Position numbers and translations under genes: made by a program. A stretch of 25,290 nucleotides of DNA, from the IMG/VR virus record IMGVR_UViG_3300007992_000014, positions 1-25,290 of that record; one strand, given 5' to 3'. Of the stretch, positions 9,295-25,290 are shown piece after piece (within the stretch, counting starts at the first letter, position 1; each line of letters opens with the position of its first letter). Origin of the DNA: a virus (Duplodnaviria > Caudoviricetes). Below the pieces are notes generated by a model, which made no database searches, was not told the origin of the DNA, and saw only the letters and a list, made by a program, of their open reading frames with translations.

Positions 9295-12200
9295 ATGGCT
9301 AAGTCTACAAACACTTTTTTGAAATCCAAGATGAATCAAGACTTGGATGCTCGTATAATGCCTAAGGGTGAATACAGATCTGCAAAAAATGTTCAAGTAA
9401 GTGCTTCAGAAACAGAAAATGCTGGTTCACTTGAAAACATACTGGGTAACTCTAGTGTTTTAAACACACAAACTTTAACAGGTGTCAGTGGTCTATATTG
9501 CATAGGTCACAGGGTTCATAATGAGTCTAGTAATGTTTATCTATTTTTTACAAACTGGGACGGTTTAGTTGGTGGTCAAAAACCAATACCTTATTATCCA
9601 GCAGCTAAAAACTTTATAATACAATATAATTCTCAAACTCAAACCTCTAGAATTTTAATTAGTGGTGCTTTTCTAAATTTTTCAAAAGAAAATCCTATAT
9701 ATGGTGTTAATGTTTTAGAAAGTTTACTTTTTTGGACAGACAATAGAAACCAACCTAGAGTTATAAACATTGAGCAAGCTGAAGAAAATCCTTTTTATTA
9801 TACTACTGAAGATCAAATATCGGTGGCTAAATATAACCCATACAATTGTATAGATCTTTTTCAAGAAAGTTATTTATCTTCTACAGATAACGCTTACGAG
9901 TCAACTCTTAAAGATGTGGTTTCTAAAGAACTAACTAACGGTGGTTACGGAAGAGTAAACGCTGCTCAATCAGCTGGATTAACCACTGTTGTTGTTAATA
10001 GCTTCGTTGGAGATATAAGCTTAGTTAATGGAGAATATGGCGTAGCCGCTAGTGTAGGTTACACTGACCCTATAACTGGTCAAATAATACCTATAAATAA
10101 CGCTACCTTAAGCTCAGCTGTTTATACCAGTAGTAGTTCTACATGGACTTTAACTATAGCTAATGGTGTTTTTCCTCAGCTAACAGTTTTAAGTGATATT
10201 GTTTTAAATCCAAACCCTTATTACGACTCTAAGTTTGCTGGTGATCCAGATTTTTTAGAAGATAAGTTTTCTAGATTTAGTTATAGATTTAAATACGAAG
10301 ACAACGAGTATTCTATATTTGCTCCATTTACACAAGCGGCTTTTATACCAGAACAAGATGGTTATTTTTTATACGTAAAAAAACCAAACTTATCAGAGAT
10401 AGAAGACGAAAGCGACACGTATAGAAGTACTACTGTTTCTTTTATGCAAAATAAAGTTAACGATATAAAGTTAAGAATACCTCTACCTTTTAAAAACTAT
10501 GACATACAGAATAGTTTAAAATTAAAAGAAATAGATGTACTTTACAAAGAGTCAGATTCTACAGCTGTAAAAGTTATAGACACTTTAACTATAGACGAGA
10601 TACAGCAATCTGCTGGTATTTTTACTGTTAATGGCGCTGTTACAAACTCAGTAGGACCTTTTAACATAGACAACATAAAAGGAGGTGTTGTTGTTGGTGG
10701 TTTAGTAACTGGTTTTGGTATAGTTGGTAAACCTAAGATAACTGTTTTTGAACCTACTAATCCTAATAACCCTTCAGCTGGAGGTCAGGTAACTTTAGAT
10801 CTACCTCAAACCTTAGTTGACAACGTGGTTTTAAAAGTTAATGACCCTGATTATTTTGTTTTTAACTATCAATCAAAAAAACCATTTAAAACACTTCCTG
10901 AAGCGGATCTTATAAGGGTGTATGATAAAATACCTGTAAAGGCTCTATCTCAAGAAGTTTCAGGAAACAGGGTTATATATGCTAATTTTCAAAATAAGCA
11001 TACTCCGCCTAAATCCTTAAATTACAATGTATCGGTTTCAACTAAAGCCAATTTTGATTTAAAAATAGAAGAAGGATCTATACTTGGAGGTCCTTATAAT
11101 GGAACTACAATAAAAATAAGAAAAGGCTCTGTACCGCCTAGTGTTGGAGATTTTATATCTTTAGTGGTAGGTACTGGTAGTATACCGGAAGAAACAGAAG
11201 TTGTTTCGGTTACTGAAAACCCAGCAGGATCTGGTGATTATGATGTAGTTTTAACTAACTCGGTTACAAACCTAGTTGCAGCTAATATAGTTTTATTTGA
11301 ACCTGGCTCAGATACTTCACAAACATCTAGCATAATAGAATATCCTAACCATAGTGTTAAATCTAATAGAAACTACCAAGTTGGCATTGTTTTGTCTGAT
11401 AGATATGGTAGAACCTCTACTGTTATTTTATCTAATAACAAAGATACTATAGTAGTAAACGGTATAGGTTACTCTGGTTCTACCATATACTCTGCATATA
11501 TAGACCCTTCTATAATACCTTCTCAATGGCCTGGTAATTCTATAAAGCTTTTATTTAATCAAGCTATATTTTCAACATTAAACAAACAAACTGGAACACC
11601 TGGATTGTACAACGGGGATTCAGCTAGCTTAGCTTATAATCCTTTAGGTTGGTATTCTTACAAAGTTGTTGTAAAACAAACGGAGCAAGAGTACTACAAT
11701 GTTTATTTACCTGGTATAATGGCTTCTTATCCATCTGACGCCACTTTAGAATTAGGTAAAACTTCACATATAGTGTTGATAAACGATAATATAAATAAAA
11801 TACCAAGAGACTTAACAGAGGTTGGTCCTGAGCAAAGGCAATTTAGAAGTTCTGTTAGACTTTTTGGTAGAGTTGAAAATACAAACAACCCAATTATACC
11901 TAGCACTGATATTGGTAGCAGTAACAAACAATACTATCCTGAAAGATTTACAGATATAGTTTCTACAATATCAACTGTTAGAGATTTATTTGAATATCTT
12001 CCTTTTTCAGATGAAGCTCCTAGACCAGATTATTTTCCTCAATTTTATTCTTTAGAATCAAACCCTTTGATAGCTAGAATAAGTACTCATAAGAAAATAG
12101 GACAAACATCCGTAACAAATTACGAAACGGTTAGCGCTCAATCAGCTGTAGCAACAACAACAGACATAATAAGATTAGCAAGCATAGCTGGTGATACATC

Positions 12201-14142
12201 TACAATTAACGCAGGCGACAAAGTTTTAGGGTCTGGTTTTCCAGATGACTTAGTAGTTGAGACACCTGGATTTACCGCAGAGCAACCTATTTCAAATACA
12301 CCTGCTTTTGCAACCGCTGCTTCTTCAATAAGTAATATTATAGAAGTTAACACAACAGGTAATCCTGCTATATCCATAACTGTTGGTGATTTAGTTACAG
12401 ATCCAGCCAACTCAAACACTATACCAGCAGGAACAGTTATAACATCTATACAAGCAGCCACAACAAGTCCTGCTGCGTTTGCTAAACTTACTTTAAGTAA
12501 CGTTGTGCAAATAGCTGGCGGTGTTAATATAACAATATCAAACCCAGCTAGAATAAAAGTAAATAAACCAGTAAGCGTTGCAGCTGATCAAACTATAACT
12601 ATAGTTAACGATGAGGTACCTGGTATACAATACTTAGCTGTTTACGAAACAGAACCTGTAGAAAGTTTGTTAGATATATTTTGGGAATCATCAACAACTG
12701 GTTTAATATCTGATTTAAATAATTCTATAATAAATGGTTCTTCTGGAGCAGCTAGCTTTAGTAGTTTAAATCCTAGTCCTTTTACAGAAGGTTTAGCAAG
12801 CGGTGGGGAAATATTTGCAGCTCCGTTTAGTATTTTAGATAATTTTGGGCAAGTAATTCCTTTTAATCAAATAGATGAAACTTTAGAAATAGTAAGTGTT
12901 TCAAACGCAATACCACAAGAATTTAGTCCACCTTACTTTGAACTAGTTCAAGTTTCAGGTAACAACTTGTTTAACATAGTTACTACAGCGGCGTACTTTA
13001 ACGCTATGTTTTATAACTATTCTGAACCTTCAAGAACTTTTATTTTTAATTTTAAAGCAACAATAAATGGATTAATAACGTTTTTTGAAGAAGAAGTGGT
13101 CTTGCAAAACGTTTCACCGGTTATATCAGCGCCAACTCAAGGTCAAACTTTCTCAGCTACTCCATCGACTTCAATAATAACAACAATAAACGCTAAAAAC
13201 GGTAGCGCTAATAACTCAGGTTCAAACTCTTTGTCTGGTATTTTTAACGATGGAGATTGTACTATAATATCTCAAACATCTGGATCTGCAACAGGACCAA
13301 GCGTCGAATACTTTGGTATACAACCTTTAATTACATCAGGAGCTACTAGCGCTACATGGCAATTAAAAAATCTTTTTGTTGATGAACTACCCGTAGAAAC
13401 TTACTATCTTACAATACAAGTTCAAGATGCTGGTGGTGGAAGTTTTGCTGACACTGTAGATATAATAATAAACATGGGTGTAACAGTAACTAAGGTTTAT
13501 CAAAAAGTAACTATTACTTATAGCGATGTTGGCTTGCCAAACGAAGATGAGTATCCACCAAACGGAGCTCCTGGTTATAATTCCAATTGGCATAACCAAG
13601 CTTGGGGTAAATGGTGTATGCAGTTTCAAACTTATTTTTATGTAGCTACCGGACCTACTTCATCTCAGGGTTGGTATATATTTAATGGACCATTTAGTAA
13701 TTCAAGTTATAATTATTTCTGGACTTGGGCTGGTGGGGTTGATGATTCTCCAGTTGGTCCACAAACTACTTGGTCGCCAAACGGAACAATGGTCAATGCT
13801 CTGGCTGATGAAAACAATGTTATACAAGTTAACTTTGCTGAATCAAACACAACAATATACGAATTAAAAAGAGGAGGAACGGAAACAGCTGTTTTTAACG
13901 AGTGGTTCAATGGTAGCGGTGGATCTAGTAGCTGTAGGTATTCACAAAACTGGCCATACGCGAGTGGGTATACTTATTTTGCAGATGCTGTCCCTGCTGG
14001 CTGTGGTGAACCTGGAAATACTGTTCCACTTTATTGTGTTCCCGGTATGGAAAACGGAACATGGACAGGAAAAGCTTTAGATATAACCGCAAACGCGGCT
14101 CTATTTGGTTTAGATCAATATACTTTTGCTGTAGTAACTTAA
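9295..14142 (+). CDS. Large tail nozzle / 'stabilisation' protein (1615 aa) with inserted beta-repeat domains, cadherin/Ig-like domains and an aromatic C-terminal domain
   Basis: N-terminus NTFLKSKMNQDLDAR..P.GEYR.A.N and LLFWTDNRNQPRVINI resemble P22 gp10-like / crAss-like stabilisation proteins; beta-rich; cadherin-like NVSPVIS...YYLTIQVQDAGG near 13108-13440. Confidence 0.68.
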   Translation: MAKSTNTFLKSKMNQDLDARIMPKGEYRSAKNVQVSASETENAGSLENILGNSSVLNTQTLTGVSGLYCIGHRVHNESSNVYLFFTNWDGLVGGQKPIPYYPAAKNFIIQYNSQTQTSRILISGAFLNFSKENPIYGVNVLESLLFWTDNRNQPRVINIEQAEENPFYYTTEDQISVAKYNPYNCIDLFQESYLSSTDNAYESTLKDVVSKELTNGGYGRVNAAQSAGLTTVVVNSFVGDISLVNGEYGVAASVGYTDPITGQIIPINNATLSSAVYTSSSSTWTLTIANGVFPQLTVLSDIVLNPNPYYDSKFAGDPDFLEDKFSRFSYRFKYEDNEYSIFAPFTQAAFIPEQDGYFLYVKKPNLSEIEDESDTYRSTTVSFMQNKVNDIKLRIPLPFKNYDIQNSLKLKEIDVLYKESDSTAVKVIDTLTIDEIQQSAGIFTVNGAVTNSVGPFNIDNIKGGVVVGGLVTGFGIVGKPKITVFEPTNPNNPSAGGQVTLDLPQTLVDNVVLKVNDPDYFVFNYQSKKPFKTLPEADLIRVYDKIPVKALSQEVSGNRVIYANFQNKHTPPKSLNYNVSVSTKANFDLKIEEGSILGGPYNGTTIKIRKGSVPPSVGDFISLVVGTGSIPEETEVVSVTENPAGSGDYDVVLTNSVTNLVAANIVLFEPGSDTSQTSSIIEYPNHSVKSNRNYQVGIVLSDRYGRTSTVILSNNKDTIVVNGIGYSGSTIYSAYIDPSIIPSQWPGNSIKLLFNQAIFSTLNKQTGTPGLYNGDSASLAYNPLGWYSYKVVVKQTEQEYYNVYLPGIMASYPSDATLELGKTSHIVLINDNINKIPRDLTEVGPEQRQFRSSVRLFGRVENTNNPIIPSTDIGSSNKQYYPERFTDIVSTISTVRDLFEYLPFSDEAPRPDYFPQFYSLESNPLIARISTHKKIGQTSVTNYETVSAQSAVATTTDIIRLASIAGDTSTINAGDKVLGSGFPDDLVVETPGFTAEQPISNTPAFATAASSISNIIEVNTTGNPAISITVGDLVTDPANSNTIPAGTVITSIQAATTSPAAFAKLTLSNVVQIAGGVNITISNPARIKVNKPVSVAADQTITIVNDEVPGIQYLAVYETEPVESLLDIFWESSTTGLISDLNNSIINGSSGAASFSSLNPSPFTEGLASGGEIFAAPFSILDNFGQVIPFNQIDETLEIVSVSNAIPQEFSPPYFELVQVSGNNLFNIVTTAAYFNAMFYNYSEPSRTFIFNFKATINGLITFFEEEVVLQNVSPVISAPTQGQTFSATPSTSIITTINAKNGSANNSGSNSLSGIFNDGDCTIISQTSGSATGPSVEYFGIQPLITSGATSATWQLKNLFVDELPVETYYLTIQVQDAGGGSFADTVDIIINMGVTVTKVYQKVTITYSDVGLPNEDEYPPNGAPGYNSNWHNQAWGKWCMQFQTYFYVATGPTSSQGWYIFNGPFSNSSYNYFWTWAGGVDDSPVGPQTTWSPNGTMVNALADENNVIQVNFAESNTTIYELKRGGTETAVFNEWFNGSGGSSSCRYSQNWPYASGYTYFADAVPAGCGEPGNTVPLYCVPGMENGTWTGKALDITANAALFGLDQYTFAVVT

Positions 14143-14167
14143 TTAAAAAATAGGTAATAATAAACAT

Positions 14168-15871
14168 ATGGGTGCGGTAATTGAAGTAAAATATTTTAAT
14201 ACATTTATTCTGAACAAAACTAACAATGGTTCAGAAATGCCAATATGGAATGGCTCAAGAGGTATACCTAAAGACTTAGGAGGTTACGACGTGATTTCTG
14301 GAACAGTAGACGCTAACAACTGGGTTATTGAAGAATCTAGAATAAGAGGAGGTTACAACAATACATCTGTAGATTTTGGAGCTAAAGCATATATAGTAGA
14401 AGAAGACAAAGATGCTTCATTTTTAGGCAACTCATTAATATATTCTGGACCGTTCAACTCTAGAACTGGTATAAATAAAACAAATGTTTTTTCTGTTGGA
14501 GAAGACATAACTAAGTCGGCAGATCCAGCTAATGGTTCTATACAAAAACTATACGCTTCTGATTCAAATCTAAACGTTTTTCAAGAATTAAAAGTAAGTA
14601 GAGCATTAATAGATAAAGACGCTATATATTCTGCAGAAGGTGGAGGATCCGTGACGTCTAGCAATTTAGTAATAGGTGTATTACAACCTTATACTGGAGA
14701 ATACGGTATAAGTAAAAACCCAGAAAGCTTTGCGCAGTATGGTTATAATCAATATTTTGCTGATAAAAATAATAATGTAATAATAGAGTTAAACAGAAGT
14801 GGTCTTAATGAAATATCGTCAAACGGTATGAAAAACTTCTTTAGGACGGAATTAGAAAACACAAATAATTCAATAAGTGAAGGTTTTGTTACCGCTGGTT
14901 TTGATGTTTATAACAAACAATATGTGACTTCTATAAAAGGAAATCCCGTTCTTAATTCAAATTCTAACTATTATACTTTGTCTTATGATAGTAAGTATAA
15001 TGGTTGGGTGAGCTTTTTTGATTATAAACCAGAACAATTATTTAGCTTAAAAGATAAGTTTTATAGTGTTTCTAGCGGTAAGCTTTGGCAACATTATAGC
15101 ACAACAGCACCAAGAGGTAGTTTTTATGGAACAAGTTATCCTAGCACTGTTGACCTTATAGTAAATGACAATCCAGTAAAGTCTAAATCTTTTTTAACTG
15201 TAGCTTATGAAGGAAGTAATGGTTGGAGAGTAGAAAAAGCTGGAGCTGTTTCAGACCCAACAGGTACTCAGTTTTCTACTTCTTCGCAAAGCTGGATAGA
15301 AACTTTTGATTCTAGTAGCATAGTTCCTAGTTATTACGAAGGAGAATATACAGTTGTTCAATCAAACGCTATTGCTAGCGCAGCATCTACAAACGCAACT
15401 GTAATTATACAAAACCTAGTAGGTACTTTTGGTTCTAATAACCAAGTTATAATACCTGTAGATTCAACTGTAACTGGACCAGGTGTTTCTTTAAGTACAA
15501 AAGTTGTTAGTTACAACGCAACAACAGGCGCGTTAGTTGTTAACCAGAATTTAAATATATTAAAACATGCTCAACTTTCCTTTAGCAGATTTGTTAATAG
15601 AGGAAGCTACAATGCTGTTTTTGGAACAGCCACTCCTTCTTTTATAAATAAATATTACGAGGGTTTTAATAGAAAAGAAAACAAGTACGTTGCTAGTTTG
15701 ATAAATAATTCAAGAGTTAGTGCAGGAGAAGTTAATTTTGCCCAACAAATAGCAGGTATAAAAGGTTTTTACGCAACAGTTAGAATGTCGACAGATACAA
15801 CTACAGACCCAGGAGGTGAAAAGCAATTGTTTCAAGTTAGTACAACTTACACTCAAAACAATGGCTTTTAA
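14168..15871 (+). CDS. Tail protein resembling the C-terminal half of a stabilisation/nozzle beta-propeller (567 aa)
   Basis: Propeller-like motifs GSIQKLY, YGISKNPESFA, YFADKNN, ISSNGMKNFFR and TLSYDSKYNGWVSFFDYKPE. Confidence 0.62.
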   Translation: MGAVIEVKYFNTFILNKTNNGSEMPIWNGSRGIPKDLGGYDVISGTVDANNWVIEESRIRGGYNNTSVDFGAKAYIVEEDKDASFLGNSLIYSGPFNSRTGINKTNVFSVGEDITKSADPANGSIQKLYASDSNLNVFQELKVSRALIDKDAIYSAEGGGSVTSSNLVIGVLQPYTGEYGISKNPESFAQYGYNQYFADKNNNVIIELNRSGLNEISSNGMKNFFRTELENTNNSISEGFVTAGFDVYNKQYVTSIKGNPVLNSNSNYYTLSYDSKYNGWVSFFDYKPEQLFSLKDKFYSVSSGKLWQHYSTTAPRGSFYGTSYPSTVDLIVNDNPVKSKSFLTVAYEGSNGWRVEKAGAVSDPTGTQFSTSSQSWIETFDSSSIVPSYYEGEYTVVQSNAIASAASTNATVIIQNLVGTFGSNNQVIIPVDSTVTGPGVSLSTKVVSYNATTGALVVNQNLNILKHAQLSFSRFVNRGSYNAVFGTATPSFINKYYEGFNRKENKYVASLINNSRVSAGEVNFAQQIAGIKGFYATVRMSTDTTTDPGGEKQLFQVSTTYTQNNGF

Positions 15872-15899: not shown

Positions 15900-16562
15900 A
15901 TGTTACCATCAATAATAGGAGCTTCATTAGGAGTAGTTAGCGGAATTTTTGGAGCAGCTTCAGCTAAAAAAAAGGCGCAAGCAGCTAAAGCAGAAAGATT
16001 AAAACTTCAAGCTAAACTAAAAGATCTAGAAAATAATAGACAACAAATAATAAACCCTTATGAAGGGATTCAAGATCTTAGCGCTATGATGAATAATCCT
16101 TTTTCTAGCTTAGGCGTAGCTACTGGAGCAGCTGAAATGAAAATAGAAGAAGCAGATATATCTTTAGCTAATACGTTAGACCTAATGAGATCAACAGGAC
16201 AGAGCGCTGGTGGAGCTACTGCATTAGCTCAAGCAGCTTTAAGATCTAAAAAAGGAGTTGCGGCGAGTATAGAGCAACAGGAGGTTAGAAACGAAATGCA
16301 AAGAGCTCAAGGTGAAGCTACCTTAAACCAGCAACTTACAGGAGAGCAAAGAAGATTACAACAAGCTGATGTGGCAGGTGCGCAGTTTCAATTTAACACT
16401 AGAGAATCAAGACAGATGCAAGAGCTTGATAGAACTTCTGATTTATTATCTGGAGCTCAAAATAGAGAAAACGAAGCGTTTAGAGATGAAACCTCAGCTG
16501 TTACAGGTATGTTTGGATCTCTTGCTGGTATAGCCGGCGAAAGACTAAGTATGGAAGCTTAA
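15900..16562 (+). CDS. Probable ejection / DNA pilot protein (220 aa)
   Basis: Gly/Ala-rich hydrophobic N-terminus (IIGASLGVVSGIFGAASA), Q/A/E-rich coiled coil and Gly-rich amphipathic C-terminus; first gene after the tail genes, where P22 gp7 / T7 gp14-type proteins sit. Confidence 0.65.
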   Translation: MLPSIIGASLGVVSGIFGAASAKKKAQAAKAERLKLQAKLKDLENNRQQIINPYEGIQDLSAMMNNPFSSLGVATGAAEMKIEEADISLANTLDLMRSTGQSAGGATALAQAALRSKKGVAASIEQQEVRNEMQRAQGEATLNQQLTGEQRRLQQADVAGAQFQFNTRESRQMQELDRTSDLLSGAQNRENEAFRDETSAVTGMFGSLAGIAGERLSMEA

Positions 16563-16574
16563 TAAAAAACAAAG

Positions 16575-17675
16575 ATGGAAAACAAAAATATCATAAATAA
16601 TCTTATAATAAAACAAATAAACGAAAGTGATGCGATAGCTTATAATTTAGATTATCTAGCTAGCCCAACTAATGCTGAGTTTAATTTGTTAAATAAAGCT
16701 TATCAATACACTGGTAAAATATATGCTAAACTAAAGTTATCTATACAAAACAACTCTTGTATTAGTGAAAACTGTGAGTTAGAAACTAAAAAATTACTTG
16801 AACTAGAAAGTGCTCCTCAAAAATCTTTAGATTTTTTATCAGATGTTATATCTCAAGTTTCTACTGTTGATGAGCCAAATTTTGATCCTAATAATAATTT
16901 TGTTTATACTGTTGTATATTCTTTATTAAGTTCAAAACCAGGGTTTAGCATAAACGATGGTTATGACGCAAAACTAAACCTTTTACACGATGGTACTCAG
17001 CAATTAGTTTTTAGCGGACCAGGTATAGAGGGAGAGTTCATAATAAATAACAGTGCGTTATCTTCATTACTTGAGTCAGGAACTTCTTTGGTTGTTTCCA
17101 CTCCTGATATAAATAAAGACATGCTAAGTCTGTTAAAAGACGTAGGTGTATTTAGTGAAGACATGGTTGACGAAGAAGGAAACTTAAAACCAGAAGCTAA
17201 AATAACTGAAGAGTTTATATTAGTTGATGCAGAATGTAACCCTATATATAAAATTATAGATTTAGGTGACAATAAAGGTAGAAACATACTTCAATACGAC
17301 ATGGATAAAATTAGTAAAAAAACAGATCCATTTATAAATGCAGAGATATCTGGTTTGTTAAGCTCTGAACAAGATGCTGTTGCTGCTTGGAACGTATATA
17401 TAGCTCAAGGAACTAGTCAAGAAGAAGATGATCAAATGGTTCAAAACGCAAACGCTGGTCATAAAAGTTGGTCTTATGAAAAAGACTTACCCTTGTCTCA
17501 AAGTAATAAAGTTTTATTTAGAAAAAAATATAAAGAGTATTTTATGAAAAATTATTTAAAACAATTTACAACAAATCAATTGCCTTCTGTAAAAGCAGAC
17601 GCTGCTGTGTTTGATCTTGAAGAATCAAAAAAACAAGAAGCTCAGAAATTTTTAGCTGATAACGACTTAAATTAA
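16575..17675 (+). CDS. Hypothetical acidic protein (366 aa), probable second internal virion/ejection protein
   Basis: Clean ORF between the pilot-like gene and the giant gene; function from synteny only. Confidence 0.5.
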   Translation: MENKNIINNLIIKQINESDAIAYNLDYLASPTNAEFNLLNKAYQYTGKIYAKLKLSIQNNSCISENCELETKKLLELESAPQKSLDFLSDVISQVSTVDEPNFDPNNNFVYTVVYSLLSSKPGFSINDGYDAKLNLLHDGTQQLVFSGPGIEGEFIINNSALSSLLESGTSLVVSTPDINKDMLSLLKDVGVFSEDMVDEEGNLKPEAKITEEFILVDAECNPIYKIIDLGDNKGRNILQYDMDKISKKTDPFINAEISGLLSSEQDAVAAWNVYIAQGTSQEEDDQMVQNANAGHKSWSYEKDLPLSQSNKVLFRKKYKEYFMKNYLKQFTTNQLPSVKADAAVFDLEESKKQEAQKFLADNDLN

Positions 17676-17680
17676 ATTAA

Positions 17681-20600
17681 ATGAACGAATTAGAATTATT
17701 CACTGCTTCTCTTAAAGACTTAGGTTTATCTAAAGACGAAAGAATAAAGAGAATTAAAGAGTGGAAAATATCAAACAAACCTTTAGATGTTAAAGAGGAA
17801 AAACCAATAGACTTAAAAGTTGAAACTGAAATATCTAAAGAAATTAATAAAGATATAAACACTGTTAAACCAGCAAAGACAAATGTCTCTACAAGTGCGG
17901 ATCCAACTGTGGAGACAGAAAAAGATACGGGATCCAACTCGGAAGTTGCTTTATCGGGATTACCTATTGATCCTATTCCACCGGAACCAATATTTCCTTT
18001 TGCAGATGAAAACGCTGCACCTTTTGAATTCAACCAAACATACACAGCTCCACCTGGTGAAACTTTTGACTATGGCGATGGTGCTTATAAATATACGGTA
18101 GATCCAATAACCTTACAACCAATTTTTTACGCTAAAGCGTTAGGTTCGGATGAGTGGGTTGATACTACCGGTGATGGTTTAGCTACTATGTTGGTTGCAT
18201 CTAGATTAGGTTTTGTTGATGATTTTAATATTGATGATTATATACAAGCCGAAAAAGAAATACAAAAACAAGAACCTAAAAGTGAACTTGACCAACTCGA
18301 AGATGGTTTTGTTATGGAAGATGGTGATAATGTTGGGGACTTAGATGAGGTAGTTGTTTACGCGTTTAAAAAAGACGAAACAGCTGTAGAGAAAAAAATA
18401 AGACTAAACTACGAAAAATATCAAGAAGCAAGTGATGTTACTCTTAAAGAATATTTAGCTATTCAAAATGAAGTAGGTTTAATTAACTTAGACACTCAGG
18501 TAACAGAAACAGTAAAAGCTATTCCAAACTCTAACCTTAGCGGAATGGACTTGAAGATGGCTTATCGATCAGAAGGTACAACTGAAAATGTAACTACCAC
18601 TACGATTCCTTACGAAGAAGAAAGAAATATAGCTATTTCATTTTTACAAAGCCAAAGAGAAGAAACATCTAATGAGGATCCTATAACTGAAGCTGAAATA
18701 AGAGGTGTAACAAAACTGCAAATTGCAAGAGATAAATACACAGCTTTAAAAGATCAAAAAAATAGAGATTACTTAAGTGATATAAGTGACGAAGAAAGAA
18801 AACAAAACCATGATTACGCTCTTGGTATTGAAAGTACTTTTGATCCAGAAATTGAGGAAATCAAACTAGTAGAAGAGTTTGAATCTTTAAAAAATAGCGA
18901 TATAGTTAAAACTGTAAACTTAATGAGTGTTGAGTTACAAAGGGTTTATGAACAAATAAATACTTTAGGTGCAGAAATAAAAGAAAAACAAAAAATTGGT
19001 ATTAATTCTTTAGATGATCAAAATACGTATAATGCTTTAGCAGCTAGTTTTAATAAAAGATCTAATGTATTAAGCGCTGAAAGAAAAACAATACAACAGC
19101 AATTTGACTTAATTAATTATGATTACGCAGAGTTTATTGCTACTAACGAAGTAAAAAGCACTGCTGAAGAAAACTTAGATTACTTAAGAAGAAGTTATAG
19201 TTTATCAGAAAAATATTTTGGAAAACCATCTATGAGTGGAATTTCATTTGGCGGAGGTGGATTAGCGCCTGTTACATTTCCTAATGCCGTAGGGTTTTTT
19301 ACAGATAGTGAACTTGGTATGGAATTGCTTAACACCACCATGAGTTGGGCGCAAATAATACTTCAAACAGTAGCGACTGTTGAAGATAAAACTATAGCTG
19401 GTGCTGGAGTATTAGCACCAGGCTTGTTTATGTCTAAAACACTTGCTCAAGCATTAGGTGATGATTTTTTAGAAGCTCAAGCGGGTCTTAAAGACTTAAT
19501 TGAATTAAGAAAAAATAAATTCGTAAAAGATGTTAATTTTGGTAAAGGACCAAATGGATCTTTTTACTCATTTTCTAATTTTTTATATTTTCTTAGTCAA
19601 ACAGCTGTAGAACAACTGCCTTTTTTTGCTACTGTTGCTATACCAGGAGTTGGCCTTTATTTAGCCGCGTTATCAGCTGGTGGTGATTATTACGTTGATG
19701 AATTTAATAGAGCAAAGGCTAAAGGCGTTGAGTTTGATAGAGAAAAAACTTTAGCAAAATCTTTTGGCTTTGCGCTAGTTGAAGGTTTAGGTAGTGCTTT
19801 ACCTATGAAAATGCAATTCAAGTATATTCAAAACTTAAAACTTGATAAGCAAACTCTTGAATCAGGAGTAGGAGCTTTTTTTAGAGATGTAAGAAAAGCA
19901 GCTCCAGATTTCTTAAAATTAACCGCAGCAGATGTTGGTGGTGAAGTTTTAATTACTCAATTGTGGCAAAATGTTATATCCGGAAGACCTATGTACGAAG
20001 GTTTTGGTGAAGCTGGTTTTACGTCTTTAATATTCTCAACAAGTTTTACAGGAGTTCCAATAATAGCAGGAGCTTCAATGAGAGCTTTATCTGATCCTAC
20101 TACAAACGCAGAGTTTGATCAAAACGTTAGAGATATAGCTGAGTATCAAGAAATTATAGCTAAGAATGAAGGTGGACCAGAACTTGATATCAATACAAAA
20201 ATTTACTATAAAGGTCTTATAGATGATAAATTAAAAAGAAACGATGACATACTAAAAGAAAGAAGTAAATTAATAGATTTAAACCTAGACGCCACTGGTT
20301 GGAAGCTTTATGTCAACTCTATAAATAGACTTACTTATCTTAAAGAACAAGCTATATCACTTAGAGCAGAAGCTAAAAAACCTGGAATAACGATTGATGT
20401 ATCAAAACAAATAGCAGCGCTAGAACTTGAGTTTTCTATAACCAAATCAAACCTAGATGCTTACTTAGTAGCTTTCACTAAAAGGTTTGGATTGCTTTCT
20501 GTTTCTGTCCAAAACGATTTAAAAGATAGAGCTAAAGCAAAACTAAAATCAAAAGGTAATAACAATCCTTCTGATGCTCAACTACTTAATATAGCTGAAC

Positions 20601-23600
20601 AGTTGTACACTGAAGATACTATAAGAGATAATGCAGAAAATGATTTTGCTATGATATCTCTTTTACGTGGAAAAGGAATAAATATAAATTATAGTATATC
20701 AGATACTAATGCGGATGCTTTAGCGGCTTTCACAGAAATGGTTAACGCTAGAATAGCAGATCCAAATATCCAGTTTAGAGGTTCTAAAGTAGATCCTATA
20801 AGTAAAGAAGAAGCAGGTAAAAAAGAAATAGAAGACTTTAAAGCTGGGTTAAAAAACGGTACTGTAAACGGTGTTAATTTGATATCTATTAACGTAAAAA
20901 CAGGTCAACCAGTTTACGACTCTGTAGTTACTATAGAAAATGCTATATTAAATAATAATGGTAGAGTAGGTTTACACGAAGTAACTGGTCATGTTATTTT
21001 TACAGAAGCTTTAGGTACTAATCCAGCTGCTTTTAAATCTTTAGCTGGAACTATATTAACTTATCTTGCTGAATTTGATCCTAAAGCATATGTTAGAATA
21101 GCACGTAAAACCGAGGGCCAAGGTTTTGACGAAGTGTTAACTGTTTTCTTAGAAGAATTAGATAGAATTAATTTTGAAAAAGGTAAAGAGCAAGGTTTTT
21201 GGTCAACCTTAGGTATTGGATTTAATAAAGCAACATCTGAAGCTGTTGGCAAAGATTTTGATTATGACTTTAAAGGGGCTAAAGATGTAGTAGAGTTATT
21301 AAGACAAGTGGCTGAGGGATATAAAAACCAAACTCTAACACAGGATTCAATAGATCAAATAATAAATAGTGATGCTTGGCAAGGTAGTATTGAAGGTCAA
21401 TTAGATGACGGTAGCGTAGGCTTAGATGAGGTTTTACTTACAGGTTCTAAAAAATCAGAATCAATATCACCTGAAGGAGCTAAGTTTTTATCTGAGTGGA
21501 GAAAAGGTTTGTTCACTAATGAAGATCTAGTGTTAATGATTAGACAAGGAGCTGCAAAAGATAAATACCCAGCGGCTGAAGCTTTTGTTGAAGCAAATTT
21601 TGGAGTTATAAAACCAATAATAGGTTACGAAAGAAGAGGAACAAAAGGCATAGATGAAAACGGTGTAAAACAAGCTATAATAGAACTTATCATTGGTGGA
21701 GAAGGTGCTAAGTGGAGTGGCAAAACAACAGCGTTGTTTGAAGAAGGTGAAGGTTATAATCCTGATTTTGCTGTAACAACTTACATACGAAGACTAGGTG
21801 ATAGACGAGATAAAATATATGAAAGAGCTAAAGAACTTGGTGATACTGTATTTGATACTAACGAGTTAGATTCTACCTCAGAGGGTACTGTTGATATTGA
21901 AACAACACAGCCAACTGAACAAGCAACAACAATTGAAGTTGATCCCTTCAAGGTCATGAAAGATTCTAACGTTGATGCCATAGTAGCAGACGTTAAAGAA
22001 AAAATAGAATTATCAGAAATAGATTTAGACAACATAACTTTAAAAGATTTAAAACCTTTTGCAGAGGTTGCTGCTCAGCAAATAGCAGATCAAATAGGTA
22101 TACCTGTTTCACGTATATTAAATCCTAAGGACAATTTACGTAAAGGCGAAGTTACACCTATACAGATGTTTATAAAAAACAATGGCCCAGCTTTACTATC
22201 TATGTTAAAGCAGATAAAAGGTAATGCTGACATACAAGTTGTAAAAACTAAAAGCGGTACAAAGAAAATAGGTGGTGAAGGTAGGAAACTTGGTCAAAAA
22301 TTATTAGATGCTTTTTATATAAAAGGACCTAAAGTTAATAATCAAATACAATACAAGTTAGATCCTAGCAAGTTAAACTTACCTTATTTCTATTCTGTGT
22401 TTGGTATGGATTCGTCTGGTAATATAAAAGACGCTAGATCAGGAACAGCTCAAGCAACTAAAAACTTGATGGAGCTTTTGTCTAGACTTCAAACTTTAAA
22501 AGGAATTGAATTAGCAATTGATCAACAAATAGAAGAAGGCGCTACAACTGAGTCTGAGGGTAAAAGACAAAAAGTACAAGTAAAAAGATCTGAAAGTATT
22601 TCAGTGGAAAGAGACTTTAAAAAAGGAGTATTTGTAGTTCCTATTCCTGATCTAACGACGGTTGTAACTCAAAGAGTGAACAGTAAAGGAGAAACAGTTA
22701 AGGCTAGGAAAGTAGACTTAACAACTCCAGCTGGTATAAAAATAATAAATGATTTAAAAGGTTTTTTTGAACTACATCCTGAGCAAGCTTATTTATTTAG
22801 ATCAGGTATGACAGGTGGGTTTGGTTTTACATTTACAGACACACCTACTTTTGATAAAATATTTCCTGGGTTAGAAACTACAGGTGATTTAACTAGACAG
22901 AAGTATACTGTAATTGGTGGATATCAAAATGGTGCAGCAATAACAAAGTTAGTAGAAGACCCTGATTTAATAAAAAAGAAACAAGACCTGCTAAAAGATT
23001 TATTTTTAAACATACAAAGTTATATTAAGAAAAATCCAGACTCTGCTTCAACTTTTTCGTTATGGCAAATGGAATCTAGTAAAGACCAAAATCATCCAAT
23101 AAGATTTTTAGCACCAACTGTTTTTTATGCTATAGATCCTTTTACAAAGCGAATAAAATTAGATGTAAAAGTGACAGAAGAGCACATGATGCCTAATGTT
23201 CAGGCTGGAAAATCACTTTTAGACGCGGCTATAAAAGGTAAAGTTGAAAGTGAGTTTGATAATATTATATCCAAGTCTTATGGTCAAGGTGGTCTTAGAT
23301 ATTTAAACGATTTAGCGTTAGAGCAATTTGGATTATTAGATAGACTACCTAAAAGTTATTACGATTTAGTTGTACCGCTTTTAGAAGCTGGAAAATTAGA
23401 TTTTTTACCTGCTGGTATGGCGTCTTGGATAAGATACAGTGAAAACAATGTAGCTAATCCTTTTGAATATAGTCTTATTAAGCCTAATATAACGATAGGT
23501 GAATTATTTGTTGGTAAACTAACAGGATTAGATGGGTTGAAAGGAGCTGATTTCCAAGTTGGAATTGACATGGCAGGCATGAAAGCTAATGGTTTAATAA

Positions 23601-25290
23601 CTAGAGTTCTTACAGGTGACATGACAGTTGAAGCTGCTAAAGCAGAGTTTAAAGTTTATCAAAGATTATTAAAAGATAAGGTAGCTTCTTTTAACAGCAA
23701 TAACGTTAATTTTGGTTCTAAAACAAAACTAAGTCAAAGCATATCAGGTCAAATAGAAATACTAAATAACTATGACACAGCTTTAGAAATGTCTAGGAGA
23801 ATAAATCCTCCGGTTATGGGTATATCTGTATTAGATTTTGATGACACTGTAGGTATAACAAGTAGTAAGATAGGTGTTACAATGCCTGATGGAACTTTTA
23901 AAAAGATAGACGCTACTGAGTTTGCTTTAGAACATACTAACTTAGAAGATATAGGTGCTACTTTTGATTTTTCTGAATTTAACAAAGTTATAGGAGGAAA
24001 ACGAGGACCGTTATTTGGTAAGTTGAAAAGAGCTGTAGAAAAATATGGAAATAAAAATGTATTTATATTAACAGCTAGACCTGCTGGAGCTGCACCAGCA
24101 ATATATGCTTGGTTAAAATCAGAGGGCGTAACTTTAATAGAAGGAAACATAGTAGGTTTAGCGAATGGAGCTCCACAAGCCAAAGCTAACTGGATAGTTA
24201 GTAAAGCAGCTGAAGGTTATAATGATTTTTATTTTGCTGATGACGCTATTAAAAATGCACAAGCGGTTAAAGCTGTTTTAGATGTATTAGATATAAAGTC
24301 TGAAGTTCAAATAGCTAAACAAAGCAAGTCAATTGTTTTTACCTCTATAATAAACGATATTATAGAACAAAAAACTGGCATAGAAGCTTATAAGCAATAT
24401 TCCGCTGCTAAAGCTCAAACAATAGGAGCTAGTAAGGGTAAGTATAATTTCTACATACCTCCTTCTGCTGAGGATTTTACAGGATTACTATATAAGTTAT
24501 TAGCAAAAGGAGCTGTAGGAGATGCTCAAATGGCTTTCTTTAAAGATAATTTACTTGATCCATACAATAGAGCTGAAATTCAAATTGGAAAAGCAAAAGT
24601 TTCAGCTGGTGCAGATTTTAAAGCGCTTAAAGCTAAGTTTCCTAAATTACCTAAAAGTTTTAAAAAACAAACAGGTGTAGGTAGATTTAACTATGAACAC
24701 GCTATTAGAGTTTATTTATGGGATTCACAAGGGATGACAGTTCCTGGTTTATCTAAGGCAGATCAAAAACAATTAGTTGATTTTATTAAGGCTGATCCTG
24801 ATTTAAAAGTTTTTAGTGATGAATTAATAACTATACAAAAAGGTAAACCTTACCCTAAACCAGGCAAAAGCTGGGTTGCTGGGACTATAACAACAGATGT
24901 TATAAGTGGAATTAATAAAATAAACAGGGCTCAATACTTACAAGAGTGGCAGCAAAATGTAGATATTATATTTGCACCTGCTGTATTAAATAAATTAGAA
25001 GCCGCGTTTGGGCCTGCTTATGTTAAAGCTTTGAAAAACTCTATTCAAGCTCAAAAAATAGGTAGCAATAGAACCTCTGCCGCTGATTCTATTACAACAA
25101 GATGGTATGATTGGATAAACAACTCGGTAGGTGTTGTAATGTTTTTAAATACTAGATCAGCATTAATGCAAATGATATCTAATGTAAACTTTATAAATTG
25201 GAGTGATAATAATCCTATAAAGGCAGCTAAAGCATTTGCTAACCAGCCTCAGTACTGGAAAGATGTAATGTTTTTGTTAAACTCTCCATA
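17681..25290 (+). CDS. Giant multidomain internal virion / ejection (polyvalent) protein, at least 2536 aa, 3'-truncated by the window
   Basis: ATG at 17681 (MNELELFTASLKDLGLSKDERIK...), 5 nt after the upstream stop; the frame reads open to the window end (...YWKDVMFLLNSP). Absent from the ORF track because there is no stop. Third gene of the ejection cluster. Confidence 0.9.
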   Translation, partial: MNELELFTASLKDLGLSKDERIKRIKEWKISNKPLDVKEEKPIDLKVETEISKEINKDINTVKPAKTNVSTSADPTVETEKDTGSNSEVALSGLPIDPIPPEPIFPFADENAAPFEFNQTYTAPPGETFDYGDGAYKYTVDPITLQPIFYAKALGSDEWVDTTGDGLATMLVASRLGFVDDFNIDDYIQAEKEIQKQEPKSELDQLEDGFVMEDGDNVGDLDEVVVYAFKKDETAVEKKIRLNYEKYQEASDVTLKEYLAIQNEVGLINLDTQVTETVKAIPNSNLSGMDLKMAYRSEGTTENVTTTTIPYEEERNIAISFLQSQREETSNEDPITEAEIRGVTKLQIARDKYTALKDQKNRDYLSDISDEERKQNHDYALGIESTFDPEIEEIKLVEEFESLKNSDIVKTVNLMSVELQRVYEQINTLGAEIKEKQKIGINSLDDQNTYNALAASFNKRSNVLSAERKTIQQQFDLINYDYAEFIATNEVKSTAEENLDYLRRSYSLSEKYFGKPSMSGISFGGGGLAPVTFPNAVGFFTDSELGMELLNTTMSWAQIILQTVATVEDKTIAGAGVLAPGLFMSKTLAQALGDDFLEAQAGLKDLIELRKNKFVKDVNFGKGPNGSFYSFSNFLYFLSQTAVEQLPFFATVAIPGVGLYLAALSAGGDYYVDEFNRAKAKGVEFDREKTLAKSFGFALVEGLGSALPMKMQFKYIQNLKLDKQTLESGVGAFFRDVRKAAPDFLKLTAADVGGEVLITQLWQNVISGRPMYEGFGEAGFTSLIFSTSFTGVPIIAGASMRALSDPTTNAEFDQNVRDIAEYQEIIAKNEGGPELDINTKIYYKGLIDDKLKRNDDILKERSKLIDLNLDATGWKLYVNSINRLTYLKEQAISLRAEAKKPGITIDVSKQIAALELEFSITKSNLDAYLVAFTKRFGLLSVSVQNDLKDRAKAKLKSKGNNNPSDAQLLNIAEQLYTEDTIRDNAENDFAMISLLRGKGININYSISDTNADALAAFTEMVNARIADPNIQFRGSKVDPISKEEAGKKEIEDFKAGLKNGTVNGVNLISINVKTGQPVYDSVVTIENAILNNNGRVGLHEVTGHVIFTEALGTNPAAFKSLAGTILTYLAEFDPKAYVRIARKTEGQGFDEVLTVFLEELDRINFEKGKEQGFWSTLGIGFNKATSEAVGKDFDYDFKGAKDVVELLRQVAEGYKNQTLTQDSIDQIINSDAWQGSIEGQLDDGSVGLDEVLLTGSKKSESISPEGAKFLSEWRKGLFTNEDLVLMIRQGAAKDKYPAAEAFVEANFGVIKPIIGYERRGTKGIDENGVKQAIIELIIGGEGAKWSGKTTALFEEGEGYNPDFAVTTYIRRLGDRRDKIYERAKELGDTVFDTNELDSTSEGTVDIETTQPTEQATTIEVDPFKVMKDSNVDAIVADVKEKIELSEIDLDNITLKDLKPFAEVAAQQIADQIGIPVSRILNPKDNLRKGEVTPIQMFIKNNGPALLSMLKQIKGNADIQVVKTKSGTKKIGGEGRKLGQKLLDAFYIKGPKVNNQIQYKLDPSKLNLPYFYSVFGMDSSGNIKDARSGTAQATKNLMELLSRLQTLKGIELAIDQQIEEGATTESEGKRQKVQVKRSESISVERDFKKGVFVVPIPDLTTVVTQRVNSKGETVKARKVDLTTPAGIKIINDLKGFFELHPEQAYLFRSGMTGGFGFTFTDTPTFDKIFPGLETTGDLTRQKYTVIGGYQNGAAITKLVEDPDLIKKKQDLLKDLFLNIQSYIKKNPDSASTFSLWQMESSKDQNHPIRFLAPTVFYAIDPFTKRIKLDVKVTEEHMMPNVQAGKSLLDAAIKGKVESEFDNIISKSYGQGGLRYLNDLALEQFGLLDRLPKSYYDLVVPLLEAGKLDFLPAGMASWIRYSENNVANPFEYSLIKPNITIGELFVGKLTGLDGLKGADFQVGIDMAGMKANGLITRVLTGDMTVEAAKAEFKVYQRLLKDKVASFNSNNVNFGSKTKLSQSISGQIEILNNYDTALEMSRRINPPVMGISVLDFDDTVGITSSKIGVTMPDGTFKKIDATEFALEHTNLEDIGATFDFSEFNKVIGGKRGPLFGKLKRAVEKYGNKNVFILTARPAGAAPAIYAWLKSEGVTLIEGNIVGLANGAPQAKANWIVSKAAEGYNDFYFADDAIKNAQAVKAVLDVLDIKSEVQIAKQSKSIVFTSIINDIIEQKTGIEAYKQYSAAKAQTIGASKGKYNFYIPPSAEDFTGLLYKLLAKGAVGDAQMAFFKDNLLDPYNRAEIQIGKAKVSAGADFKALKAKFPKLPKSFKKQTGVGRFNYEHAIRVYLWDSQGMTVPGLSKADQKQLVDFIKADPDLKVFSDELITIQKGKPYPKPGKSWVAGTITTDVISGINKINRAQYLQEWQQNVDIIFAPAVLNKLEAAFGPAYVKALKNSIQAQKIGSNRTSAADSITTRWYDWINNSVGVVMFLNTRSALMQMISNVNFINWSDNNPIKAAKAFANQPQYWKDVMFLLNSP
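17873..17939 (+). promoter_or_regulatory. Candidate -1 programmed ribosomal frameshift signal (in-frame GCA_AAG, 5-nt spacer, H-type pseudoknot)
   Basis: Stem 1: TGTCTCTACA (17884-17893) with TGTGGAGACA (17908-17917). Loop GGATCC (17899-17904) can pair with GGATCC (17930-17935) across an A-rich 12-nt linker. Confidence 0.45.
20850..21340 (+). other. Zincin-like metallopeptidase domain within the giant protein (boundaries approximate)
   Basis: GLHEVTGHVIF (HEVTGH at 20975-20992) preceded by beta-strand-like segments and followed by DEVLTVFLEE (21128-21157), a candidate third-ligand helix. Confidence 0.7.
21515..22120 (+). other. Sigma-70-like module (region 2-like segment plus helix-turn-helix) within the giant protein
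   Basis: TNEDLVLMIRQG...AAEAFVEANFGVI...YNPDFAVTTYI resembles sigma regions 1.2/2.1-2.3; QQIADQIGIPVSRI (22076-22117) resembles a sigma region 3/4 HTH. Confidence 0.55.
23090..23460 (+). other. HNH / His-Me-finger-like nuclease domain within the giant protein (boundaries approximate)
   Basis: VTEEHMMP (EHxxP at 23180-23194), then a strand-helix YGQGGLRYLNDLAL, then LLDRLP and a terminal WIRY (23426-23437). Confidence 0.5.
23810..24316 (+). other. HAD-superfamily phosphatase domain within the giant protein
   Basis: All four HAD motifs in order: ISVLDFDDT (DxD, 23834-23848), FILTAR (24062-24079), Lys at 24182 and FYFADD..KN (DD at 24239-24244). Confidence 0.88.

Follow-up and report, generated by a model that had tools for sequence, protein, structure and literature searches.

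A giant putative ejection protein encoded in the window, the whole 25,290-nucleotide stretch of viral DNA analysed here, is probably a self-processing polyprotein: an embedded zincin-like metallopeptidase appears to bind short serine-centred tags at four module joints and likely cuts its own chain there. We put the probability of this reading at about 0.72. Among relatives the tags covary with a single zincin residue, which makes them likely self-cutting sites, and the comparison of homologues makes it very likely that the zincin reads them. An earlier note on this DNA had seen a repeated K-x-S-x-S-I linker at the domain boundaries and proposed that it is recognised by the embedded zincin, which would release separate effectors after injection. 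The recognition part of that proposal is strongly supported by comparison of homologues, in which the match to the zincin is a statistical coupling: the tags are enriched at boundaries and change together at the protein level, they follow the zincin tree and pair in charge with one of its residues, and they are lost in relatives that lack it.

Results

The giant protein and its setting

The giant putative ejection or cargo protein (17681..25288, on the + strand, as are all features below) runs to 2536 aa, with its 3′ end cut by the window end, and its close homologues are 2944-3003 aa at full length. Its source is a marine, crAss-like phage of the Flavobacteria type, which likely injects the protein into the host. 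Packaging in the virion and delivery to the host are suggested by its position after the muzzle genes, for which there are Pfam matches in the window, and by its synteny and N-terminal homology with phi18:3 gp123, an annotated MS-detected virion protein. Two upstream genes of 220 and 366 aa (15900..17675) occupy, by synteny, the slot of smaller virion or ejection proteins, and the 220-aa product matches Calle2_3 at E 5e-4 (among 13 proteins). The capsid protein of the window has its nearest cultured relatives in Panino (45% identity), Elemovirus (42%) and Callevirus (35%). A hydrophobic segment at aa 646-664 (19616..19672; hydropathy 1.84), likely the membrane-inserting part, lies in an N-terminal region common to the giant proteins of Elemovirus, Callevirus and Baltivirus (HMM E 6e-27 to 7e-20).

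Pfam scans of the whole giant protein and its pieces gave nothing informative and no LPD family, and Foldseek searches against the PDB gave no match at E <= 0.001 for either structure model. A BFVD search returned 12 matches, all from uncultured viruses or unnamed, and tblastn against cultured phages gave no match to any of three queries (C-terminal block, HAD piece, one zincin), while a search for longer homologues with the zincin alignment found 3 proteins only. In marine data we estimate that the family spans about 990 viral and 2900 metagenome stretches.

The zincin-like domain

The domain at about aa 974-1230 (20600..21370) is supported as a zincin-like metallopeptidase of gluzincin type by its motif and a middling fold match. 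Its predicted zinc-binding and catalytic motif, HEVTGH (20975..20992; aa 1099-1104), is an HExxxH variant of the kind described for the MPTase of polyvalent proteins (PMC5512222), and in the structure model it falls in helix 132-149, the presumed active-site helix, with three strands before it. E1151 (21131..21133), in helix 185-194 of the model, is the predicted third zinc ligand. H1099, E1100, H1104 and E1151 are invariant among 93 rows that were picked on HExxH, a selection of which E1151 was not part. Compared with known zincins the model scores Z 4.0-5.8, below the trust level of the fold-search tool, as is its match to PPEP-2 (Z 5.2, rmsd 4.7, 151 aligned); among zincin members, M78 was matched in 5/68 and SprT-like in 3/68, at weak E. 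The residue N1091 (20951..20953), designated H-8 because it stands eight positions ahead of the first His of the motif, lies in the loop before the active-site helix of the model and is the predicted specificity determinant.

The downstream modules

Downstream of the zincin, the earlier note had placed a sigma domain, an HNH domain and a HAD domain, and these labels fared unequally. In module 2 (21470..22582), aa 1275-1384 resemble ECF sigma region 2, with many ECF sigma region-2 chains at a middling Z of 4-6.4 and an Atlas lead of 0.89; Pfam gave no match to sigma region 2 in this module. Module 3 (22604..23725) carries conserved EEHxxP, Y-x-Q and R-Y and may be nuclease-like; the HNH label found no family match, there being no consistent Pfam match in 36 members and no PDB sequence match under E 0.5, and in the fold search of the model that includes module 3 the matches were taken up by the HAD domain. 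The HAD label stands, supported by a DxD motif and the HAD fold: a predicted phosphatase of the T4 Pnkp 3′-phosphatase type occupies aa 2044-2215 (23810..24325), with DFDDT at aa 2052, a profile match to phrog_415 (E 0.003) and a model that matches 5uj0 at Z 13.3 (rmsd 2.6, 128 aligned), the match stopping at the B4 tag. A conserved C-terminal block (24338..25288), about 720 aa in full-length homologues, is nearly tag-free, with 11 matches in 81,682 aa.

Several unrelated effector-type domains (sigma-2-like, module 3, HAD) share one polypeptide with an MPTase hub, the zincin. The modules vary among homologues and are mosaic, and their identities correlate weakly with each other; residues 1401-1600 are 91-96% identical to L005 and 59-66% identical to L001, otherwise the closest homologue.

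The tags in the window protein

Four in-frame copies of K-x-S-x-S-I, spaced 378, 381 and 197 aa apart, lie where the earlier note had put them: B1, KKSESIS (21449..21469; aa 1257); B2, KRSESIS (22583..22603; aa 1635); B3, KLSQSIS (23726..23746; aa 2016); and B4, KQSKSIV (24317..24337; aa 2213). Their DNA differs at synonymous sites, as had been observed, the core Ser being written TCA, TCT, AGT and AGC. All four tags are in predicted coil or loop. B1 ends a 30-residue low-confidence coil after the zincin, B2 is in low-confidence coil near the construct end in both models, B3 is in a short loop between two helices (pLDDT about 70) and B4 in a short turn after the last HAD strand (pLDDT 60/52). 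The B3 and B4 loops are 4-6 residues long in the model, which leaves a protease little room as long as the chain stays folded.

The pattern K.S.SI, chosen after the fact, occurs four times in the giant protein, and more than two copies arose in 0/20,000 shuffles. An exhaustive pattern scan of the same protein found QxxLKD four times at a Poisson p of 3.9e-7, versus 4.8e-7 for the tag; since QxxLKD is equally unlikely, the count in a single protein is not decisive, and we dropped the shuffle statistic as proof because of this look-elsewhere effect. The 11 other ORFs of the window contain no K.S.SI and only scattered matrix matches, the best of 9.7 bits in the 220-aa protein. A fifth match that had been suggested, RRSYSLS (19187-19207), is present as a sequence and fails as a motif: in homologues its Ser column holds N/D or a gap, with S in 3% of 115 rows, and close relatives read KRNYS.

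The tags across homologues

The motif is conserved in a shorter form than the one first described. Across 117 homologues the conserved core is [K/M/R]-[F/A/S/E/Q/L]-S-K (in a stricter form, [K/M/R]-[F/A/S]-S-K), and the 'S-I' part is restricted to the lineage of the window protein. We rejected K-x-S-x-S-I as a family motif because it is too narrow: even the looser [KR]-x-S-x-S-[ILVM] has four copies in L001 and L002, three in L012 and 0-2 in the remaining 19 of the first 22 loci.

In homologues the tags cluster at the four joints that carry them in the window protein, the boundary enrichment for which the earlier note had proposed to test. In a motif-masked alignment of 99 proteins (fragments and 5′-open ORFs, 15/114 representatives, were left out), tags were found in 12+14+30, 46, 40 and 66 sequences at the joints, with 0-16 in the other bins. 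A matrix built on B4 only gave 8.96 versus 0.89 matches per 1000 aa for the B1-B3 zones, and shuffling within zones, which keeps composition, yielded a mean of 15.6 and a maximum of 28 in 200 trials against 124 observed. Tags of at least 4 bits stand at 80/117, 95/116, 79/111 and 104/116 joints; in the L049/L051/L208 lineage B4 is lost with the zincin intact. Of the failings that could be looked for here, namely a motif that is not conserved, lies off the boundaries or is buried, none was found.

Within a protein, tags at different joints resemble each other, with an identity of 0.427 versus 0.255 (0/400 permutations), and the same holds in 44 proteins under 42% identity (0.393 versus 0.233); the flanks of the tags have no such excess. 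One homologue, L161, has L-[AS]-Q-K at all four joints.

Coupling of the tags to the zincin

Tag similarity correlates with zincin identity (rho 0.34, 6084 pairs), more than with the flanking modules. Among 1619 of 6555 pairs, the remainder having been dropped for too few aligned columns in the poorly aligned N-terminal control modules (median identity 0.13-0.14), the coupling was rho 0.52 and beta 0.50, reached in 0/150 permutations. The zincin-less proteins L011 and L172 were left out of these distance tests. Two B4 traits needed 6 and 11 parsimony changes on the zincin tree, versus 17 and 21 when mapped on a tree built from the neighbouring C-terminal block.

The coupling is sharpest at one zincin residue. 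Where H-8 is Asp, the residue two after the core Ser (Ser+2) is basic in 34/35 proteins, and where H-8 is not Asp, Ser+2 is non-basic in 55/58; the exceptions are L076, L043, L110 and L216. These counts cover the 93 of 110 proteins that were scorable, 17 with fewer than two scorable joints being excluded, and do not include L011, L172 and five EExxH rows. Per site, Asp at H-8 accompanies 121 basic and 0 acidic residues of 135, while Lys or Arg accompanies 0 basic and 10 acidic of 24. Found after the fact, H-8 ranks first among 1036 columns (phi 0.89; runner-up 0.71). The link persists at B4 taken at a fixed offset (33/2/5/51) and is by far strongest at +2 (0.90 versus 0.13; at +1, 0.87 versus 0.69). 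In starred sister clades, H-8 and Ser+2 undergo nested switches and charge reversals; on the zincin trees the switches are few, the starred pairs numbering 2 and 4 (p 0.5 and 0.125). No zincin column was a clear winner for tag positions -2, -1 and +1, or for Arg versus Lys at +2.

In L011 and L172, which lack the zincin, B1 and B2 are absent and B4 has a Ser-to-Asn change; L011 retains the Ser at B3, and the zincin loss represents a single lineage. Consistent with this, though not a test of it, Panino gp69 and phi18:3 gp123 share the N-terminal region without HExxH and without a repeated high-scoring tag.

Discussion

Proposed mechanism and alternatives

We propose that the zincin binds the serine-centred tags at the four joints and cuts its own chain there, which would free a sigma-like piece of 378 aa, a module-3 piece of 381 aa, the HAD phosphatase of 197 aa and the C-terminal block. 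H-8 would line a pocket for Ser+2, where Asp and Lys/Arg would form a salt bridge in one group and small or neutral residues would take that place in the window protein, and the scissile bond is likely just after the Ser or one residue later. The timing is the weakest step: cleavage that accompanies or follows ejection into the host is slightly favoured, and maturation in the head or before packaging has a little under an even chance.

The zincin might instead read the tags without cutting, acting as a peptide-binding hub whose docking of the joints serves folding up, packaging, autoinhibition or threading of the chain. The covariation results would suit such a hub, since they show recognition and not hydrolysis, and so would the 5/117 proteins in which EExxH replaces HExxH with the tags retained (rows that were identified by eye, the zincin HMM having missed them). 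N4 vRNAP, too, is packaged uncut, with its MPTase region needed for encapsidation (PMC5512222), and with ArdC no proteolysis was observed (PMC7213743). Against docking, HExxH or HExxGH, and with it the catalytic Glu and both His, is kept in 110/117 homologues, and the Glu of the third ligand does not vary among the aligned rows; a single domain would need to dock at four places; and the tags occur only where cuts free whole domains, the disordered linker that the model places inside module 2 (aa 1389-1417) being tag-free. We regard docking without cutting as unlikely.

It is still less probable that the tags are read by some other factor, such as the ejection channel or a different protease from host or phage, and that they are linked to the zincin through common descent. 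The few independent switches on the zincin tree leave room for it, as do the poor alignment of the N-terminal control modules and the possibility of proteases encoded beyond the 25-kb window; yet ancestry fits poorly with a single zincin column that beats 1035 others with complementary charge and with reversals inside starred clades, with tags that decay where the zincin is deleted, or with a B4 that follows the zincin tree and not its C-terminal neighbour.

A DNA-level origin, in which the tags are micro-repeats serving as recombination joints for module shuffling or products of gene conversion, would suit the mosaic, weakly correlated modules but is largely refuted. Synonymous codon identity between tags is 871/1555 (0.56) versus 0.535 expected; because this is near expectation, their likeness is at the protein level, and the core Ser matches in codon family in 223/397 pairs versus 0.55 expected, with TCN and AGY at every joint. 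A chance origin, or a structural tendency of linkers rich in Lys and Ser such as helix capping, is likewise largely refuted: equally unlikely patterns exist in the same protein and B1, B3 and B4 each precede a predicted helix, but the zone shuffles, the change in step within proteins and the coupling to a residue 160-1100 aa away would go unexplained.

If self-cutting by the zincin is true, it accounts for how separate effectors arise from an injected chain of 300 kDa and why modules remain usable after a swap. More broadly, and with odds only somewhat better than even, phage giant ejection proteins may be polyproteins with a readable, evolvable protease code, in which the charge preferred at Ser+2 depends on one residue of the active-site loop and the tags are all retuned together once the protease alters or a new one is swapped in. 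Sequence alone could then predict the cut sites and the effectors released, and the same logic may extend across polyvalent proteins, with a separate tag for each clade (of Q-type in Elemovirus).

Comparison with known systems

Autoproteolytic domain release by the MPTase of polyvalent proteins was proposed in 2017, with three possible times: prior to packaging, inside the head, or once injected (PMC5512222). Those proteins resemble ours in being giant multidomain virion proteins in which an MPTase is embedded, the HEXXXH variant among them; we found no recognition motif, site or specificity residue named there, and 'linker' occurs 0 times in the main text of that paper. In the portion of the literature available to us we found no published site code for polyvalent-protein autoproteolysis. 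N4 virion RNA polymerase and P1 DdrB/DarA are likewise virion proteins with an MPTase, unlike ours in that we found no repeated site reported for them; P1 DdrB is processed to 76 kDa (PMC5512222), and recombinant N4 vRNAP with HExxH showed no degradation (PMC13434306). ArdC gave no HhaI proteolysis, and its E229A mutant was functional in conjugation (PMC7213743). The self-cutting reading is weakened by the intact N4 vRNAP, by ArdC and by the EExxH clade that keeps its tags.

Among Bacteroidetes-infecting podoviruses, crAss-like phi14:2 likewise carries zincin-containing cargo (gp65-gp66-gp67), and related fused polyproteins are described as 'likely cleaved'; the same study proposes no cut sites and suggests that the zincin might digest peptidoglycan instead (bioRxiv 10.1101/2020.03.07.982082). 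Unlike the phi14:2 type, the giant protein has no recognised RNA polymerase, nor was one recognised elsewhere within the 25-kb window. A cultured parallel is Elemovirus gp18 (YP_010108995.1; host Flavobacterium sp. BAL314), which has the same gene position and is homologous in its N-terminal region, at E 6e-27, and in its zincin, at E 2e-15, but is unlike in its modules and C-terminal part. Downstream of its zincin, R-[F/Q/M]-Q occurs three times (3 versus 0.39 expected; noticed by eye, after the fact), so that gp18 termini would be predicted at 1683-1688, 2079-2084 and 2302-2307, and its H-8 is Lys with a non-basic +2. We found no proteomics of this family or of Elemovirus in the literature.

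The family supplies exact candidate sites, a predicted specificity residue and natural charge-swap pairs, namely L013 (H-8 Asp, tag SKK) against L124/L177 (Arg/Lys, SKD/SKE) and L028 (Asp, SKR) against L031 (Arg, SKL), together with protease-less natural knockouts and a cultured relative in Elemovirus on Flavobacterium BAL314, so the question of self-cutting is open to direct experiment. In picornaviruses, one embedded protease, 3C, recognises short junction motifs repeated along the polyprotein; here the putative enzyme is a metallopeptidase in the cargo of a DNA phage with swappable modules, and the likeness is one of analogy only.

Results

The window comes from a crAss-like podovirus and is its structural module: terminase, portal, and capsid genes and two genes of muzzle type, with genes of 220 aa and 366 aa lying between the muzzle-type genes and a giant open reading frame at 17681-25288, which encodes 2536 aa, is open at the window end, and has close homologues of 2944-3003 aa. 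The muzzle-type protein at 9295-15871 is split over two genes (1615 + 567 aa); in the inspected cultured relatives it is mostly a single gene of 946-1612 aa. The nearest relatives of the capsid protein come from an uncultured spring virus (48%), Maribacter phage Panino (45%), Elemovirus (42%), Callevirus (35%), and Baltivirus phi18:3 (22%). The gene order muzzle, small, medium, giant is common to the window and those cultured relatives, the products of the last three genes in phi18:3 are annotated as virion-detected by mass spectrometry, and the N-terminal region of the giant-protein family matches four tested cultured giant proteins (E 6e-27 to 7e-20), unlike that of the ctfjg026 giant protein, for which no N-terminal match was obtained. 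From this synteny, annotation, and shared region we infer that the giant protein would be packaged and ejected.

The earlier note had read K-x-S-x-S-I copies at the domain boundaries of this protein as a candidate autoproteolytic cleavage code. All four copies are present and in frame, at aa 1257, 1635, 2016, and 2213 (spacing 378, 381, and 197 aa), and mark the joints B1 to B4: zincin (HEVTGH) to sigma-like module 2, module 2 to module 3, module 3 to HAD, and HAD to the C-terminal block. The weak fifth match, RRSYSLS (19187-19207), is not the motif, as it aligns with R-[N/D]-Y-S of the N-terminal region in homologues. Shuffling the window protein 20,000 times never gave more than two copies. 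Because the pattern was chosen post hoc, and QxxLKD likewise occurs four times in the window protein with an equal Poisson p, homologues were needed to judge it. Residues 1401-1600 (21881-22480) share 91-96% identity with locus L005 and just 59-66% with L001, which elsewhere reaches 77-98%; this points to a mosaic block from a recent module exchange.

Scans with the C-terminal block, three of viral and one of metagenome data, yielded the homologous loci L001-L246; the first 171 gave 114 representatives at <85% identity, 99 of them near full length, and 18 later additions made 117 proteins. In a motif-masked alignment of the 99, tags pile up at the four sites of the window protein (12+14+30, 46, 40, and 66 sequences), against 0-16 sequences in the other 20-residue bins. 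A matrix trained on B4 only, at a fixed offset, matches ten times more often in the B1-B3 zones than elsewhere (8.96 versus 0.89 per 1000 aa). Pooled tags give the consensus A(51%)-K(69)/M/R-F(31)/A(31)-S(96)-K(72), and the 'S-I' half of the tag is a variant of the window protein's lineage. Tags of at least 4 bits occur at 80/117 B1, 95/116 B2, 79/111 B3, and 104/116 B4 joints; at 8 bits they are scarce in the C-terminal block (0.13/1000 aa) and the N-terminal half (0.35/1000 aa). The 220-aa gene (15900-16562) has one matrix match, LRSKK (aa 114-118, 9.7 bits), possibly a substrate in trans, or chance. The tag-like KRSEAPN inside the sigma-like module, conserved in L025, L030, L031, L034, L065, L134, and others (16/99 rows in its bin), is likely unrelated. 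Shorter members lack the HAD module (L019, L020, L055, L078, L079, L084, L089, L138, L141, and L142), and most of them retain an FSK, LSK, YSK, or PSE tag before the C-terminal block. The frame at L006:7862-12181 begins only within module 2, its upstream part probably split off by a frameshift or stop, whether an assembly error or real.

Tags are more alike between joints of one protein than across proteins (identity 0.427 versus 0.255; 428 pairs, 0/400 permutations), also among 44 proteins below 42% identity (0.393 versus 0.233), and flanking control positions show no such excess. In L161 (3257-11956), whose zincin shares no more than 25% identity with any other, all four joints read L-[AS]-Q-K, with Gln for Ser.

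How alike the tags of two proteins are tracks the identity of their zincins (rho 0.34) more closely than that of any other module (0.03-0.16; 6084 pairs). With B1 omitted and N-terminal controls added, the zincin rho is 0.52 and its partial beta 0.50 (0/150 permutations; others at most 0.11), on the 1619 of 6555 pairs that were usable and with poorly aligned N-terminal controls. B4 traits change 6 and 11 times on the zincin tree, whereas the tree of the adjoining C-terminal block requires 17 and 21 changes. Of 14 independent pairs on the latter, 12 show Arg at +2 changing jointly at B2 and B4, and 0 show opposite changes (p 0.0005); on the zincin tree the pairs are too few (p 0.125-0.25).

A mutual-information scan singled out N1091, the zincin residue eight before the first His (H-8). 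Where H-8 is Asp, the second residue after the core Ser (Ser+2) is basic at 121/135 sites and acidic at 0; with Lys or Arg it is basic at 0/24 and acidic at 10, and with any other residue basic at 27/182. Per protein, counts for H-8 Asp/non-Asp by Ser+2 basic/non-basic are 34/1/3/55 (93/110 scorable), 11/0/0/20 among proteins below 42% identity, and 33/2/5/51 at B4 at fixed offset, in the same data in which the link was detected post hoc. H-8 is the top of 1036 columns for Ser+2 charge (phi 0.89, runner-up 0.71); the contrast is large at +2 alone (0.90 versus 0.13, against 0.87 versus 0.69 at +1), overall Lys/Arg content is equal, and the other tag positions yielded no comparable zincin column. 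In the starred clade of L030/L031, H-8 went from Asp to Arg while tags went from SKR to SKL/SKI; in another, L124/L177/L211 have Lys or Arg at H-8 and SKD/SKE tags, next to L013, which has Asp and SKK. The window protein, with Asn and Ser, is consistent with this code; L076, L043, L110, and L216 are exceptions. The zincin of L216 (4325-12373) nests with the SKT-type L037/L038 and its tags are SKR-type, so that it may be a recent zincin swap whose tags are not yet re-tuned. Starred independent pairs number just 2 and 4 on the zincin trees (p 0.5 and 0.125, 0 opposite); the C-terminal tree has 17 pairs, of which 14.6 are same and 0 opposite (p 6e-5), although a single origin may be counted there several times through repeated zincin swaps.

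AlphaFold2 models were made of aa 965-1665 (pLDDT 74) and aa 1610-2270 (pLDDT 84). B1 is predicted at the end of a low-confidence coil of 30 residues; for B2 both models predict coil, again of low confidence, but close to a construct end in each. B3 is predicted in a 5-6-residue loop with a helix on either side, and B4 in a 4-residue turn following the last HAD strand. The disordered linker within module 2 (aa 1389-1417) is tag-free, so tags are not a feature of all linkers. As for the domain labels proposed before, HAD holds (T4 Pnkp 3'-phosphatase, Z 13.3, rmsd 2.6, 128 aligned, the match stopping at the B4 tag); the zincin region, which resembles several zincins, and aa 1275-1384, which resemble ECF sigma region 2, have middling matches (Z 5-6.4), and HNH for module 3 was not confirmed. 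N1091 sits in the modelled loop directly ahead of the active-site helix. In thermolysin-type enzymes this stretch lines the primed subsites, from which the cut is predicted just after the Ser or one residue further.

Discussion

The tags sit at the module joints, are conserved, change in step within proteins, and are coupled to the zincin, which is likely their reader. Recognition, the part of the earlier interpretation that fares best, draws strong support from tag similarity and B4 traits that track the zincin and from the match of H-8 to Ser+2; the reading as a whole is partly supported. The zincin very probably binds the tags, and we put the probability that it would cut its own chain there at about 0.72. 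The short modelled B3 and B4 loops would suit cutting of a chain unfolded for tail passage, and so mildly favour release during or after ejection over maturation in the head, which is nearly as likely.

The zincin might also be a non-cutting docking domain, an improbable alternative on present comparisons. Among the 117 homologues the motif is HExxH or HExxGH in 110 and EExxH in 5, and the domain is absent in 2; the EExxH clade (L139, L034, L150, L167, and L159), missed by the zincin HMM and recognised by eye, keeps the downstream Glu and still carries tags, mostly KASKG/KASRG/KESKG. That another factor reads the tags is more doubtful still. In the single zincin-less lineage (L011 + L172), where the N-terminal region passes directly into module 2, B2 reads LEDTSLDVV or LEDKSLDVV and then ENTV or EGTV (LEDTSLDVV-KASKK in L202), B4 reads KANK and KKNK in place of KASK, and B3 is KSFK in L172 and a retained LSSK in L011. 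Two observations speak against this pattern: the EExxH clade retains its tags, and the lineage of L049/L051/L208 has lost B4 though its zincin is intact. DNA repeats could make tags alike within a protein but are very hard to credit, since identical tag residues share codons near expectation (871/1555, 0.56, versus 0.535; core Ser codon family 223/397 pairs versus 0.55), and the likeness is thus not at the DNA level. Chance is just as implausible: the zones hold 124 B4-matrix matches against a within-zone shuffle mean of 15.6 (maximum 28).

In published work, polyvalent proteins are defined with a HEXXXH variant noted, and autoproteolysis is proposed for one or another of three stages, with P1 DdrB given as a processed and N4 vRNAP as an unprocessed case (PMC5512222); fused crAss-like polyproteins are considered likely cleaved, with a zincin in gp65 (bioRxiv 10.1101/2020.03.07.982082). 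Recombinant N4 vRNAP showed no degradation (PMC13434306), and ArdC gave no HhaI proteolysis, its E229A change being dispensable for conjugation (PMC7213743). The phi24B gp47 metallopeptidase is assigned to peptidoglycan, and SSP linker motifs are described in a protein other than gp47 (10.64898/2026.04.10.717836). No proteomics was found in the accessible text of PMC7077304, and no paper describing junction motifs or specificity residues in proteins of this kind was found in the literature covered, in which subscription journals are thinly represented and to which the Iyer supplement could add.

The giant protein of ctfjg026 (L251) carries a linker QQNAVQKQ and two HEFGH zincins; the similar QEDA(VQKQ) occurs three times upstream of the zincin in Elemovirus gp18 (L250), at aa 881, 1087, and 1219. 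The gp18 zincin is homologous to that of the family (E 2e-15), its H-8 is Lys, and downstream of it lie R-F-Q 1683, R-Q-Q 2079, and R-M-Q 2302 (3 observed versus 0.39 expected, post hoc). Elemovirus gp18 offers a cultured test system for the tag code; the tags of the family as a whole turn the standing autoproteolysis hypothesis into one open to a precise experiment with natural controls.
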